From Nannocystis pusilla (lineage in GTDB: Bacteria; Myxococcota_A; Polyangia; Nannocystales; Nannocystaceae): DNA of 64,000 nt. Below are positions 49,150 to 54,298 of this stretch, in pieces (position 1 is the first letter of the stretch; each line of letters starts with the position of its first letter). Made by a program: the position numbers and the translations under genes. The DNA lies in NCBI RefSeq assembly GCF_049337375.1, contig NZ_JBMPIV010000001.1; one strand, 5' to 3'. Under the pieces are notes generated by a model, which was not told the DNA's origin, made no database searches, and saw only the letters and a program-made list of their open reading frames with translations.

Positions 49150-50097
49150 CTAAAGGACATGTCCTGCGAGGTGAGGCGCGAGGAGGGGGGCGATCGAGGC
49201 GACCCGCAGCGGGGTCGGGTCGCCGGCGCTGGCGGCCGCGAGGGCGCGCGCGCGCGGGTGGCTGTCGGTGCAGGCGATGGCGGAGAACAGGCCGGTGGCC
49301 TGCAGCTTGTGCAGGGCGTCGCCGGGGAAGATGCCGTGGGTGGCGACGGCGGCCAGGCTGACGGCGCCGGCGCGCTGGTAGGCCCGGGCGGCGCCGATCA
49401 GCGAGCCGCCGGTGCGGATCATGTCGTCGTAGAGGATGACCGGCTTGCCGGCGACCTGGGCGTCGATGGCGGTGATCTCGGTGCGCTCGCCGTCGTGGCG
49501 GCGCTTGAACACGAAGGCGGCGGTGACCCCGAGGTCGTTGGCCAGCGACTCGACCCACTTGGCGCGGCCGGCGTCGGTGCAGGCGAGCACGAACGGCTGG
49601 CCGCCGGCGATGTCGAGGATGATGTCGCGGATGACCGGCTTGGCGTAGACGTGGGTGGCGACCAGGCCGGCCTCGAAGTAGTGCGGGATGCCCTCGGCGT
49701 GGAGGTCGAGGAGGAGCACGCGGTTGCCGTAGGAGGCCGGCGGGATGGCCGAGAACAGGGCGGCGCGGGTCTTGGCGGTGACGACCTCGCCGGGCTTGGT
49801 CGAGCGCTCCATCGTCGCGTAGCCGTAGTAGGGGACGACGAGGGTGAGGCGGCGAGCGCCGTAGTGGACGGCGCCGCAGGCGAGGTCGAACAGGGTGAGC
49901 GCGGCGGCGTCGTCGACGGTGCCGCCGATCATGACGACGTCGCGGCCCTCGACCGGGGTGACGAGGCGGAGGTAGCGCTCGCCGTCGGGGAAGGCGAAGG
50001 TGTCGATCTCGCCGGCCTCCAGCGCGGCCGAGCCGCACAGCGCGGCCTGCAAGTAGCCGTACTCGGGGGTGGCGAACACGAGCGGGCGGGTCGTCAT
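49150..50097 (-). CDS. ribose-phosphate pyrophosphokinase family protein, divergent (PRPP synthetase-like)
   Basis: Prs-like PRPP-binding loop (..[14 protein letters not shown]..). The usual FGYARQDR flexible-loop motif is replaced by YGYATMERS. The C-terminal AGHVL* is encoded by a ggacatgtcc repeat unit. Start overlaps the upstream gene by 4 bp. Confidence 0.7.
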
Positions 50098-52001
50098 GCG
50101 GGGGGGAAAGAGTACCCCTCGGCGAGCGCGTTGGCGACCTCGGTATAGGCGTAATCGCTGACGCGTTCGTCGATGCGCATGCGCAGCAGCGCCTTGCTGC
50201 GGCAGGTGGCCGCGAAGAAGAACGCGCGATCGTCGGCGCACGCGCGCGCGAGCGCCGGATCGGCGGCCCAGCGGTCCCACTCGCGCTGGCAGATCCGCCG
50301 CACCGCGGGCCACAGGACGTCGGGAGCGGGGCCGCCGGCGTCGTCGACCCAACCGATCACAGCCGCGAGGTGGGCGTGTACGAGGGTGTGCAGCAGCTTG
50401 CCCTGCGCCTCGGCGAGGTCGGAGGTCAGGGTGAAGGAGTCGGGCGCGAGCGCGGGAGCGTGGCCGGCCGCGGCCAGCCGCCCGCGGTGGAGCCGCACGC
50501 CGCCGAGGTCGCGGACGACGAAGCCGCAGGGGCGCCCGGCGTGGACGAGGAGGGTGTTTTGCAGGTGCGCCTCGAGGGCGACGCCGTGGGCGGTGAGCAG
50601 GCGCAGGGCCGCGGGGACGAGGAGGTCGAGGTAGTCGCGGAAGAAGGCCGCGAGGCGCGCGCGCAGATCGCCGGGGTAGTCGGCGGCGAGCTCGCGCAGC
50701 ACGAGATCGCCGCCGGGCCGGCGCTCGCCGAGAGCGGCGCAGACGACGAGCTGCGGAGTGCGCGATTGGACATGCTTCAAAAAATCTGTCGCTCGGGACA
50801 GGTCCTCGGGGGCATGTCGTAAGGGGAATGTCGCGGAGGACAGGTCGGAAGGGGCAGGTGCGCCGGCGGGCGAGTCCGGAGCGGTCGGCGTCGCGTGGGA
50901 CGGGTCGGCGGGGGCGGCGAGGTCGGCGTGGAGCCGTCGGGCGAGGGCGGCGGGGTCGGGGCGGAGGACGACGCCGAGCTGGCCGGCGTCGGCGCCGTGG
51001 CGCGAGTGCAGGCCGGCGGCGGCGAGGTCGGGCTGGATCTGCAGGCCGCGGCGGGTCTGCGGGTCGGCGGCCTGGATCGCGGCCAGGAGGGCGGCGATCG
51101 CCGGGCCGTTGTGCACCGAGGCGGGCGAGACCTGGCGCCGCGCGCTGGTGGTGTGGATGTCGACGGCGAGCTTGAGGTGCAGCGCCGGCGCGGCGAGGGC
51201 GACGGTGCGCAGGCTGAGCAGGGCCCGCGCATGGAGCGGGGGCAGGCCGGCGGGGCGGACCTCGCGGCCCCACAGCGGGCCGAGCAGGCGCGGGAGGCGG
51301 CGCAGCTGGAGGGCGTGGACGGGGATGCGGACCAGGCCGGGCGGCGGGGCGGGGAAGAGGGCGCGGGCGAGGTCGGCATAGACGGCCGGCTCGGCCAGCT
51401 GGGCGTGCTCGGCGGCGACGTCGACGGCGTGGACTGCCGCCTGGGCCAGGAGGTCGGGGCCGTGGCGCAGGTTCTCCCAGGCGCGCAGGCCGAGCCGGGT
51501 CTTGCTCATCGGGTGCCACGGGTGGCCGTCGACGACCAGGTTCTCGGGGTCGAGCGGGGCGGGCCACGGCTGTCCTTCGGAGCATGTCCGATGGCGCAGG
51601 TCGGCGGCGAGGCGGGCGAGGGCGAGGTTCCAGCGGCTGTCGGCGAGCTCGCGCGCGATCCGGGCGCGGGCGGCGGGGGCGAGCGCGGGCAGGAGGCGCG
51701 GGAGCAGGTCGGGGAGGTCGGGGAGGTCGGCGCCGTCGAGGTCGGCGGCGTGCAGCTCGAAGGCCCGGCGCCGGCGCAGCGGGAGGCTCAAGGAACATGT
51801 GCGAAGGGACATGTCCTGGAGGTCGAACTCGACGAGGCGCTCGCGCGCGCAGGCGAGGACGAGGCGAGCGCCGATCGCCTGGGTGGCGGCCCGCCAGTGG
51901 GCGGCGAGCTCGCCGGGCGCGGGGCGGGCGCCGAACGCGGCAGGCACGGCCCGGGCGGCGAAGGCGAGGAAGCGGTCGCGCTCGGTGGATGGGGTGCTCA
52001 C
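50094..52001 (-). CDS. IucA/IucC-family (NRPS-independent siderophore synthetase-like) adenylating ligase with two in-frame repeat-derived insertions
   Basis: Conserved ..[14 protein letters not shown].., ..VHALQ.., ..[16 protein letters not shown].. and ..[11 protein letters not shown].. regions. Proposed GTG start at 52001 overlaps the stop of the upstream gene (GTGA). Inserts at 50767-50860 and 51790-51822 are CATG-repeat arrays. Confidence 0.65.
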
Positions 52002-52627: not shown

Positions 52628-53166
52628 GTCTGCTCCAACGTCATGGCCCAGAAAGCACGGGTGTAGTTCTCTTGCGTGCGCGGGAGAAGACCTGCGCGCC
52701 ACGGGGCGAGCCAGTCCTCCGGAGATTGGCCGGTGTCGGTCGAGAACGCCGTGCGCTCGGCGTCGACGTCGAGTTCCGCGAGTTGTTCGGGATCGACGTC
52801 GCTGCCGCTGGCCCAACTCCAGGCGCTCGGAGCCTCGGTGGCGAGGGCGCGGTAACCATCGCCGTGGCGCAGCAAGAAGAGCACGATCGGCTGGGTGCGT
52901 GGAGGATTGAGCGCCTGATCGCGAGAGCCGTCGAGGTCGCGGACGACCTCGGCCTCGTCGACCGGGACGAGCAATGCCATGCGGTTCGGCTCGCGTAATG
53001 CGTCCGCGACGGAGGAGGTGCGAAAAGGCCTCGCGGCGGTGGACGCAAGGCTCTCGACCTCTCGCACTAGCCATTCGCGCAGGTCGAGATCGGGGCAGAT
53101 GACGATGGCCAGGCCGCCCGCGTCACGCGCAATCGCCCCGGCGAGAGCGATGCCGGGCTCACGCAT
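52624..53166 (-). CDS. hypothetical protein (180 aa)
   Basis: ORF 52624-53196. Start at MREPGIALAG, 2 bp after the ATPase stop. Confidence 0.5.
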   Translation of the reverse strand: MREPGIALAGAIARDAGGLAIVICPDLDLREWLVREVESLASTAARPFRTSSVADALREPNRMALLVPVDEAEVVRDLDGSRDQALNPPRTQPIVLFLLRHGDGYRALATEAPSAWSWASGSDVDPEQLAELDVDAERTAFSTDTGQSPEDWLAPWRAGLLPRTQENYTRAFWAMTLEQT

Positions 53167-54298
53167 GGCTCGCTCCGGCGAGCAACTTGCGCGCAAGGGG
53201 ATGGATGTCCATGACGTATCCAGCGGCGCGCTGGCGCTCGAGGATCACGCCGCGGGCGAGGAGACGGATCTTACGGCCGAGCTCCATCTCGCGGCCGTCA
53301 GTGCCCGCCACGCGTGCGATCGCGTCCGTGTCCCCGGGTAGCAGGGCGCGGCGGAAGCTGTCCTTCTGGTCATTGATCGCATCGATTAGATCCTGGCCGA
53401 GCGGCCAGTCGTCGCCGCGGCGGAGGAGTGCGTATTGCGCGGCGTCGGCCATGAGTTGAAGAAAGGTGCGAGGCAGGCCGCCGCTCCAGCGGGCGGCATC
53501 GAACACGCTGGCGCGGGAGGTGAGCTGCGACTCGTGGGCGAGCAACTGCTCCAGAGAAACTCCCAACCGCTGCGCGAGGATCTCCGCCAAAAACAATCGG
53601 CCCGGGGCATGCGTCGGGTCTTCGACTTCGGGTACGGGGACCGGCGCGAAGAGTGCGCCAGGGCGCACGGCGTCCTCGGAGGCCCCGAACGCGACGAACC
53701 ACGGGACGACCGCGATGATGTCGATGTCATCGCTCAGTTGGCCGAGGGTGGCGAGCGCCTCGGATGACTGCGGGCCCTCGGGCAGCTTCTCCAAACCGTC
53801 CAGTAGGAGCGTCAGTCGACGCGGGCCGGCGCGGCGCGCGAGTTCCTCGCGCGCCGCGTGTACCAGCGAGAGGGGGCTGCCCGTGAACGACGACGCTGGC
53901 ACTTGAAGGCCGGAGAGCAGGCTTGGCGTCGCCACTCCGGCCGCGTTCAAGGCGGTGACGAGCGCACTCGAGGGACGTATGCCGAGAGCGTCTCTGGCGA
54001 CTTCGACCATCCTCGCGGCGAGCCGCAGCAGCATCTGGTCGGCCGTGAGGCGCCGAATGTTCTCGAGTCGGTCGAACTGGACGAGACAAGCGAAGCGCGA
54101 GGTCTGTAACGCGTCGGCGATGCGCGCCAGCTCGGTGCTCTTTCCGACGCCGACAGGACCGCCGACGAGCACGGTGGATGTGCCGCTGGTGACGAGGCGG
54201 GCGATTCGCTCCGCATAACCGGAAGGGGGGACGACGTAGCCAGCCTCGCCCGGATCGAGCGGACGGTGAGGGGCCAGCGCCTTCCAGTTTAGGGTCAT
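53159..54298 (-). CDS. AAA+/P-loop NTPase (ORC/Cdc6- or STAND-like ATPase with C-terminal helical domain)
   Basis: Walker A LVGGPVGVGKSTEL. Walker B-like RRLTLLLDGLEKL. Start at MTLNWKALAP. Confidence 0.65.
   Translation of the reverse strand: MTLNWKALAPHRPLDPGEAGYVVPPSGYAERIARLVTSGTSTVLVGGPVGVGKSTELARIADALQTSRFACLVQFDRLENIRRLTADQMLLRLAARMVEVARDALGIRPSSALVTALNAAGVATPSLLSGLQVPASSFTGSPLSLVHAAREELARRAGPRRLTLLLDGLEKLPEGPQSSEALATLGQLSDDIDIIAVVPWFVAFGASEDAVRPGALFAPVPVPEVEDPTHAPGRLFLAEILAQRLGVSLEQLLAHESQLTSRASVFDAARWSGGLPRTFLQLMADAAQYALLRRGDDWPLGQDLIDAINDQKDSFRRALLPGDTDAIARVAGTDGREMELGRKIRLLARGVILERQRAAGYVMDIHPLARKLLAGASHA

Follow-up and report, generated by a model that had tools for sequence, protein, structure and literature searches.

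Do genes whose stop and start codons overlap from one end of an array to the other belong to a single pathway? The question is raised by positions 49150-54298 of a stretch of 64,000 nt from Nannocystis pusilla (contig NZ_JBMPIV010000001.1; the whole stretch is hereafter called the window), where five minus-strand open reading frames (ORFs) code for an AAA+ ATPase, two small proteins called here unk1 and unk2, a ligase of the IucA/IucC family and a Prs-like diphosphokinase. The original prediction, made from the letters of this stretch, took them for a five-gene operon. The five ORFs are all present and they do overlap, but the array is not a conserved unit. The answer that we favour, with a probability of about 0.6, is that the locus was put together from three layers, and that within it the ATPase, unk1 and unk2 genes (the trio) form a self-contained anti-phage module, either autonomous or auxiliary to a bacteriophage exclusion (BREX) system. 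The novelty of the locus resides in the trio, an ATPase-based module of a kind known in defence loci. The window has a G+C content of ~72%, and its proteins are 84-100% identical to their counterparts in Nannocystis species (Nannocystaceae, Myxococcota). The features of the locus are listed below in the direction of transcription.

54348-55055, minus strand: TauE/SafE-family membrane protein (ORF; PF01925 TauE recorded for its syntenic counterparts in N. pusilla, N. punicea and locus L002)
51986-54341, minus strand: inserted trio segment, 2356 bp (delimited by breaks in blastn homology and by the G+C content at third codon positions, GC3)
54309-54337, minus strand: promoter-like site TTGACC-N17-TAAGAA, upstream of the ATPase gene (read from the sequence)
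53159-54298, minus strand: trio gene 1, AAA+ ATPase, probably of the ORC/STAND (AAA_16) type, 379 aa (Pfam score just below cut-off; Walker motifs)
52624-53166, minus strand: trio gene 2, unk1, 180 aa, AAA+-like fold without P-loop
51998-52627, minus strand: trio gene 3, unk2, 209 aa, invariant His/Cys cluster
50094-52001, minus strand: IucA/IucC plus FhuF-like synthetase of the NIS type (siderophore formation independent of nonribosomal peptide synthetases), 635 aa, GTG start (Pfam PF04183 and PF06276)
49150-50097, minus strand: Prs-family diphosphokinase, 315 aa, [AS]TMER / DDMIRTGGS subfamily (TIGR01251)
47148-49127, minus strand: NadE, glutamine-dependent NAD+ (nicotinamide adenine dinucleotide) synthetase (CN_hydrolase and NAD_synthase domains; TIGR00552 above cut-off)

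Gene junctions and insertion of the trio

The tight spacing of the genes had been read as the mark of one functional unit. Three junctions are as originally described (ATGA between unk1 and unk2, GTGA between unk2 and the ligase gene, ATGA between the ligase and Prs genes), and nadE does start 22 bp downstream of the Prs gene, at 49127. The ATPase and unk1 genes, said to be separated by 2 bp, actually overlap by 8 bp (ATGCGTGA), and the orthologous loci are called with the same overlap; both the 8-bp and the 4-bp overlaps within the trio are conserved in orthologous loci. The GTGA junction between unk2 and the ligase gene is of another kind: it arose by an insertion, and the reading of the spacing as the mark of one functional unit was not borne out.

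Comparison was made with 41 genomic loci containing relatives of the ligase gene, which were scored by tblastn with the window proteins. Of seven Nannocystis genomes, three have the trio, namely those of the window, of N. pusilla and of N. punicea; it occupies one common site in the three species and is 60-91% identical between them. It is absent from four of the six Nannocystis reference genomes (RBIL2, N. exedens, N. bainbridge and N. radixulma) and from all of the 30-odd further Nannocystaceae loci bearing the ligase gene. Nannocystis sp. RBIL2 is the closest relative (ligase 94% and Prs 100% identical), yet it is trio-less. The trio-less reference genomes keep the ligase, Prs and NadE genes at 76-100% identity, and in them tauE, which is 86-99% identical across six Nannocystis loci (tblastn), directly abuts the ligase gene on its upstream side. 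The three upstream genes are not, in other words, conserved with the ligase and Prs genes, an outcome that the original prediction had itself named as counting against it.

The limits of the insertion are given by blastn alignment with four trio-less loci (L003, L004, L007 and L008): homology ends at 54329-54347 of the window, just past the tauE stop codon, and restarts at 51985/51986, i.e. at codon 6 of the ligase gene. The 2356-bp segment stands in place of ~170 bp, made up of the TauE-ligase spacer and the first ligase codons; the replaced stretch held the GTG start of the ligase gene and a conserved upstream element, GCGCGCTACCTTTCGC. Since the insert replaced the 5' region and the start of the ligase gene, the GTGA overlap is an insertion scar. 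Each of the four trio-less genomes has the GCGCGCTACCTTTCGC element immediately 5' of the GTG codon that starts the ligase gene (at 9985-10000 in L003), and in the window it is deleted; its role may be that of a native promoter or operator for iuc-prs-nadE.

The trio also differs from its surroundings in composition and in divergence. Its GC3 is 0.80-0.85, against 0.93-0.99 for the tauE, ligase, Prs, NadE and PCMT genes, and the ATPase is 60-64% identical among the three trio-bearing genomes, against 89-99% for the flanking TauE, Prs and NadE. The promoter-like site at 54309-54337 has an inverted repeat (CCGCCT..AGGCGG) in its spacer and is nearly identical in the trio-bearing loci L005 and L006; it was read directly from the sequence, and a stricter promoter scan did not report it. 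A low GC3, a promoter-like site of its own and a diverged ATPase between conserved flanks would fit an accessory, exchangeable cassette.

One assembly calls for a comment. In N. pusilla Na p29 (JAPNKE010000002.1; loci L005/L001) the ATPase, Prs and NadE sequences each align in two or three frames and the gene calls are split at the frameshifts, probably as a result of indel errors in the assembly. That the N. pusilla ATPase gene is a pseudogene was considered and rejected, because Prs and NadE of the same assembly are frameshifted as well.

A terminator scan gave no terminator-like site between the trio, ligase, Prs and NadE genes. Its three matches, at chance level, are all intragenic (two on the coding strand of the ligase gene, one antisense to nadE); no RNA gene was detected in the window with Rfam or by a tRNA scan. 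The trio and the ligase, Prs and NadE genes probably form one transcription unit in this genome, through the insertion only. Because no intergenic terminator-like site was found, the downstream genes are probably under the control of the cassette promoter, which is likely to be a local accident and not a conserved design.

Distribution of the trio and its BREX context

Homologues of unk2 fall into 96 clusters, in which every named source belongs to the Myxococcota; for unk1 there are 143 representative clusters. The genomic context of the trio was sampled in 36 metagenomic loci and several looked-up contigs. The order ATPase-unk1-unk2 is complete in all 18 loci with enough upstream flank, and a fusion protein of the ATPase and unk1 exists. 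More than 35 loci contain the trio and neither a ligase nor a Prs gene; with so wide an occurrence, the proposal of a novel five-gene small-molecule pathway is left unsupported.

The gene that follows the trio is pglY in nine of the 25 loci with downstream sequence, and the gene that precedes it is pglX in seven of the 13 loci with upstream sequence. The fully sampled loci (L047-L050, L055 and L093-L096) have the arrangement PglW (NERD plus kinases)-PglX-trio-PglY-PglZ-BrxD-BrxHI, with ORFs overlapping throughout, which is a complete type 2 BREX system. Overall, in roughly one-third to one-half of the loci a complete type 2 BREX holds the trio, placed between its pglX and pglY genes. This nesting makes the trio look like a conflict system; the suggestion of a conflict system dependent on nucleoside triphosphates can thus be retained for the trio, but not for the five genes as a whole. 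Stand-alone trios adjoin genes for acyl-CoA dehydrogenase, WS/DGAT, esterase, MnmA, HrpB, acetate kinase, bestrophin or MatE, and the GC3 of these copies is again below that of their neighbours. A tblastn search of the 64-kb window with PglX, PglY, PglZ, BrxD and the C-terminal part of PglW found no BREX gene.

Two other loci of the sample show further genes of interest. Downstream of the trio copy of L074 are encoded, at 10833-15926, a 979-aa protein with HD-CE and HATPase_c_3 (GHKL) domains and a PglW-like protein with NERD and protein-kinase domains, which suggests that a BREX-2 locus begins here or that the region is a defence island. Upstream of pglX in the BREX-2 locus L050, at 29-1548, a gene for an ATPase of the AAA_21/SMC_N type is followed by one for a DUF4276 protein; this pair is another two-gene module of the defence-island kind.

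The trio proteins

The ATPase has a Walker A motif (GPVGVGKST) and a Walker B motif (LLLDGLEK); Walker A, as GPxGxGKST, and the DGLEK part of Walker B are invariant in 16 orthologues, and a lid-like segment (GGLPRTFLQL) is conserved. Its Pfam scores are 32.1 bits for AAA_16 (cut-off 32.6) and 23.2 for NACHT (cut-off 26.7). In a PDB profile search its matches were confined to the P-loop, and the Pfam scan of its 379 aa gave no C-terminal repeat or sensor domain (TPR, WD40, LRR). The possibility that it is a paralogue of BrxD was rejected (hhalign probability 0.5%).

The unk1 protein has an AAA+-like alpha/beta fold with a helical lid and no P-loop, and is probably a non-catalytic partner of the ATPase. 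In unk2, residues H128, D132, H151, H155, C156 and H157 are invariant. No PDB fold match was obtained for it; the flat-sheet alpha+beta proteins that it resembles, e.g. frataxin and the catalytic domains of Rieske oxygenases, do so weakly and non-significantly. From its sequence we regard unk2 as a candidate metal-binding effector. Known anti-phage systems were represented by the models of PADLOC-DB v2.0.0. Singly, neither unk1 nor unk2 matched a Pfam, NCBIfam or PADLOC model; over 40 unk1 and 25 unk2 homologues, PADLOC gave no match, mad models included, and Pfam gave no recurrent family and no BrxB.

What the trio may be

We concluded that the trio can most likely be counted as a new candidate module, either for defence or as an accessory to BREX, and that the locus could have been built up as follows. 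The oldest layer would be a distinct Prs subfamily coupled to NadE. A second one, specific to the Nannocystaceae, would consist of an orphan NIS synthetase placed upstream of Prs and beside a TauE-type exporter. The youngest and variable layer would be the 2.36-kb trio cassette between tauE and the ligase gene, which brings a promoter-like site with it and took the place of the native 5' region of the ligase gene. Within the module, the ATPase and its inactive, paralogue-like partner unk1 could form a nucleotide-dependent sensor or loader complex that controls the metal-binding unk2 as effector, the whole acting as an autonomous or BREX-auxiliary anti-phage system.

Several points weigh against this scheme. 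About half of the trio loci have no nearby defence gene. The trio has no homology to any proven defence protein; the nearest approach is a weak match of the ATPase to the PADLOC model mad8, seen in six of 16 orthologues with a best E value of 3.5e-5 and spanning ~40 residues around the P-loop. Since unk2 lacks a recognisable catalytic fold, the label of effector is a guess. A tblastn search of plasmid and phage collections with unk2 gave no match, and it is the patchiness and the composition of the trio that suggest its mobility. The Prs gene lies downstream of the ligase gene in ~24 of the 41 Nannocystaceae loci, for which either function or inherited synteny could account. Lastly, the probable co-transcription of the trio with the ligase, Prs and NadE genes leaves room for a local functional link in this genome.

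A bolder form of the same idea can be put forward tentatively, as a possibility that falls short of an even chance: the trio would be an undescribed autonomous anti-phage system of Myxococcota, with an effector of new fold, that doubles as an extra layer of type 2 BREX, and its insertion here would have put prs and nadE under the cassette promoter, so co-regulating defence expression and NAD synthesis.

Alternatively, the trio could be an integral part of the type 2 BREX of Myxococcota, for instance a MANTIS-like loader or regulator of PglX, the Nannocystis copy being a functionless remnant of a decayed BREX. Its invariable position between pglX and pglY in BREX loci, with overlapping ORFs, agrees with this, as does the inactive AAA+-like nature of unk1, which a 2026 BREX survey also describes for BrxB of type 1 BREX (PMC12839542). 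In MANTIS, too, an ATPase and a co-regulator are reported to be required for methylation. We nevertheless think this unlikely: intact stand-alone trios are found in at least five unrelated housekeeping contexts, the window has no BREX gene, its trio copy retains Walker A and all the invariant residues, the trio has been kept at one site in three Nannocystis species with its own promoter-like site, and Pfam gives no BrxB match.

A non-defensive role, as a mobile regulatory or housekeeping ATPase module such as a chaperone or assembly factor for metalloproteins, appears quite improbable. It would accommodate the lack of homology between the trio and known defence proteins, the half or so of loci devoid of a defence neighbour and the faint, non-significant likeness of unk2 to frataxin and Rieske-oxygenase catalytic domains, but it sits poorly with the repeated nesting in complete BREX-2 operons, with the patchy occurrence in closely related genomes, where divergence of the ATPase far exceeds that of the flanks, and with the atypical composition.

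The ligase, an orphan NIS synthetase

The assignment of the ligase to the IucA/IucC family was borne out: it scores 120.1 bits with PF04183 IucA_IucC (cut-off 25) and 93.9 bits with PF06276 FhuF (cut-off 25.2). The NIS motifs GHPxHPxxKxR, T-T-S-x-R-R, E-x-H-x-Q-N and R-D (as VVRD) are intact and align with those of AsbB (3to3) and AcsD (2w02), and the residues of the catalytic motifs are invariant in 14 homologues. Its homologues at E<1e-39 are almost all from Nannocystaceae or Myxococcales. The best NCBIfam match is FslA, but its score of 97 bits is far below the cut-off (1000), which means that the ligase is not an FslA orthologue.

The neighbourhood of the gene varies. The tauE gene lies upstream of it in Nannocystis and a few relatives; the ligase and Prs genes overlap only in Nannocystis proper and are separated by 60-200 bp elsewhere; in Enhygromyxa, Plesiocystis and other loci the ligase gene has neither tauE nor Prs as a neighbour. 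As originally stated, the usual siderophore partners are missing: no gene for precursor synthesis, export or uptake of a siderophore was found near the ligase gene in the annotated syntenic neighbourhoods, those of N. pusilla and N. punicea included. One NIS synthetase is enough to make rhizoferrin (PMC7857480), and for that reason the missing partners are weak evidence of novelty. The ligase alone most likely makes a simple polycarboxylate, e.g. a rhizoferrin-like siderophore, and our best guess is that this product would be exported by the TauE-family protein.

The ligase is 635 aa long in the window and in N. pusilla, against 601 aa in N. exedens and 610 aa in N. punicea, the difference corresponding to a longer linker. 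A low-GC patch (…CTGTCCCGAGCGACAGATTTTTTGAAGCATGTCC…) at 50780-50830, in frame within the linker between the IucA_IucC and FhuF parts, carries copies of a motif dispersed in the window (see below). This suggests that the linker gained a repeat element by in-frame insertion.

The Prs-like enzyme and NadE

The Prs-like protein is made of three Prs domains (Pfam) and scores 172 bits with TIGR01251 (cut-off 113), without reaching any equivalog-level model; with E. coli Prs it shares ~30% identity. The sequence YGYATMERS is indeed present in place of FGYARQDR, as had been pointed out. In a survey of the best 120 homologues (60-100% identical), all have [AS]TMER for RQDR and DDMIRTG[GS]S for the DDMIDTGGT version of the ribose-5-phosphate loop (DDxxDTGGT). 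The window protein has ATMERS and DDMIRTGGS, and thus neither the RQDR/K motif of the ATP site nor DDxxDTGGT. Other motifs are kept, namely FPDGE (119/120), DLH[AS]E (111/120) and the catalytic loop [FYIL]KRR (114/120). Because the replacements are shared by the homologues and the catalytic motifs are kept, the protein represents a conserved subfamily and not a decaying copy. We know of no earlier description of the [AS]TMER / DDMIRTGGS motif set.

The view of this protein as a divergent Prs homologue was therefore sound, and its partners elsewhere (nadE, pncB, nrtR and pncA) are genes of NAD metabolism or its control. Prs is followed by NadE in ~14 loci, one of which, from a Polyangia genome (L088), has no ligase gene. 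In a myxococcotal locus (L087) the order is pncB-prs-nrtR with pncA nearby, PncB and PncA both scoring above their equivalog cut-offs. Linkage of prs paralogues to NAD genes controlled by NrtR was described in 2008 (Rodionov et al., PMC2330246). The protein most likely supplies phosphoribosyl pyrophosphate (PRPP) for NAD synthesis or salvage; judged from its sequence and gene linkage, it would be a PRPP synthase that either serves NAD synthesis specifically or is regulated together with it. The substitutions in the ATP site and in the ribose-phosphate loop may reflect an altered regulation or an altered substrate.

The second of these options has a specific form, in which the enzyme pyrophosphorylates another ribose compound, e.g. 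of the ADP-ribose type, like the phage enzyme Adps, and feeds a reconstitution of NAD that ends at NadE. All members of the subfamily have lost R96 and Q97 of RQDR and the Asp of DTGGT to other residues, linkage exists to nadE, pncB, pncA and the gene of the ADP-ribose-responsive regulator NrtR, and Prs homologues with a changed substrate do exist (10.1101/2024.02.11.579819; PMC13586617). We hold it to be very doubtful all the same: the TIGR01251 cut-off is passed, FPDGE, DLHAE and the KRR loop are retained, the protein is nearer to E. coli Prs (30%) than to phage Adps-like proteins (24-25%), which differ in their motifs, no Namat or NAMPT gene is adjacent, and the PncB neighbour in L087 scores as a true nicotinate phosphoribosyltransferase, an enzyme that requires PRPP.

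That the window protein is itself a phage-type Adps, the ADP-ribose pyrophosphokinase of NARP1, was rejected on motifs, identity and neighbours. The two phage Adps-like proteins that were compared keep RQDR and have DDICDGGGT. For one of them, NAMPT is annotated two genes upstream; for the other, an ORF of 576 aa without annotation, presumed to be Namat-like, comes directly after the gene. Beside the window Prs gene there is no Namat/NAMPT-like gene, its neighbours being the ligase gene and nadE.

Least probable by far, and largely refuted already by the comparative sequence data, is a single pathway of the five genes plus nadE in which the ligase would join a carboxylate to a ribose- or PRPP-derived amine from the variant Prs, with the trio as an accessory: the stop/start overlaps that join all five genes, the lack of a terminator-like site between them, the altered substrate-loop motifs of Prs and the identical five-gene arrangement in three Nannocystis genomes speak for it, but four of six Nannocystis reference genomes keep ligase-Prs-NadE and have no trio, more than 35 loci have the trio but no ligase or Prs gene, Prs-NadE exists without the ligase gene, and the unk2/ligase junction is a scar at the edge of a segment whose composition is unlike that of its flanks.

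Other features of the window

The palindromic family that is represented in the ligase linker is widespread. With at most one mismatch, GGACATGTCC occurs at 35 sites in the window against 1.65 expected, e.g. at 3730, 12330-12381, 19421-19460, 49155-49164, 50780-50830, 51807, 55554, 59211, 59981-60018 and 62782. The copies cluster as GGRCATGTCY units ~14-15 bp apart and are mostly intergenic. From its sequence and distribution, GGACATGTCC looks like a dispersed element similar to repetitive extragenic palindromes or miniature inverted-repeat transposable elements (REP/MITE), or like a family of regulator-binding sites. A tandem array at 34014-34329 (period 36, 8.8 copies, 75% matches) overlaps palindrome-like sites at 34038-34155.

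Divergently from tauE, a 951-aa ORF (55709-58564, plus strand) is a conserved neighbour of that gene; PF16868 NMT1_3 was recorded for its syntenic counterparts, those of N. pusilla, N. punicea and L002.

Significance

The answer to the question asked at the outset is that tight spacing alone does not prove a shared function, as a recent insertion can create overlapping stop and start codons. The trio itself is a compact, sharply defined three-gene module, known from ~100-140 sequence clusters whose named sources are all Myxococcota. If it defends on its own, it would be a new system whose effector has no recognisable fold. Type 2 is the least understood type of BREX; if the trio works only with BREX, it could reveal how PglX is loaded or regulated in these systems. 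With its replaced residues and its consistent linkage to NAD genes, the Prs subfamily offers a case of altered regulation or substrate that may interest enzymologists working on NAD and PRPP.

Comparison with known systems

The layers of the locus can be set beside described systems. The ligase resembles the rhizoferrin synthetases (FslA, LbtA and that of Ralstonia; PMC7857480) in being a lone IucA/IucC plus FhuF enzyme without dedicated precursor enzymes; it differs from them in its surroundings, where no uptake receptor or major facilitator superfamily exporter is nearby and a TauE-family membrane protein is found instead. The Prs subfamily is comparable to the prs paralogues of NrtR regulons (prs-nadV and other prs genes linked to NAD salvage; PMC2330246), since both are chromosomally coupled to NAD genes, but in the window it is nadE that accompanies the gene, and the cluster showed no nrtR.

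For the trio, one term of comparison is MADS (mad1-8), which combines a kinase and a methyltransferase, as type 2 BREX does (10.1101/2023.03.30.534895). The trio ATPase is weakly similar to mad8 around the P-loop, as noted above; unk1 and unk2, on the other hand, match no mad model, and neither a methyltransferase nor a kinase gene adjoins the trio in the window. Another is the set of BREX proteins BrxB/iSTAND, BrxC and BrxD: inactive STAND domains are also used by BREX, according to the 2026 survey (PMC12839542), and the trio similarly pairs an active ORC/STAND-like ATPase with an AAA+-like partner devoid of P-loop. The likeness is one of fold class only, as hhalign finds no similarity to BrxD and no BrxB match was obtained with Pfam in 40 unk1 homologues.

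A further parallel is with the auxiliary modules of BREX. The trio is not described in the auxiliary-effector section of the 2026 survey or in its term-searched main text, where 'Myxococc-' occurs nowhere, the host system of the trio being the type 2 BREX of Myxococcota (PMC12839542). None of the HNH, PD-(D/E)XK, TOPRIM/OLD, HEPN, PIN and Schlafen families named in that survey was matched by the trio, two of whose three proteins belong to no Pfam family. In its organization, however, the trio follows a pattern described in the same survey, that of auxiliary effectors embedded in BREX loci: like BrxU/GmrSD and the PARIS-like pair of OLD-ABC and TOPRIM proteins (PMC12839542), it is a small set of genes lodged inside a core operon that is also found alone elsewhere.

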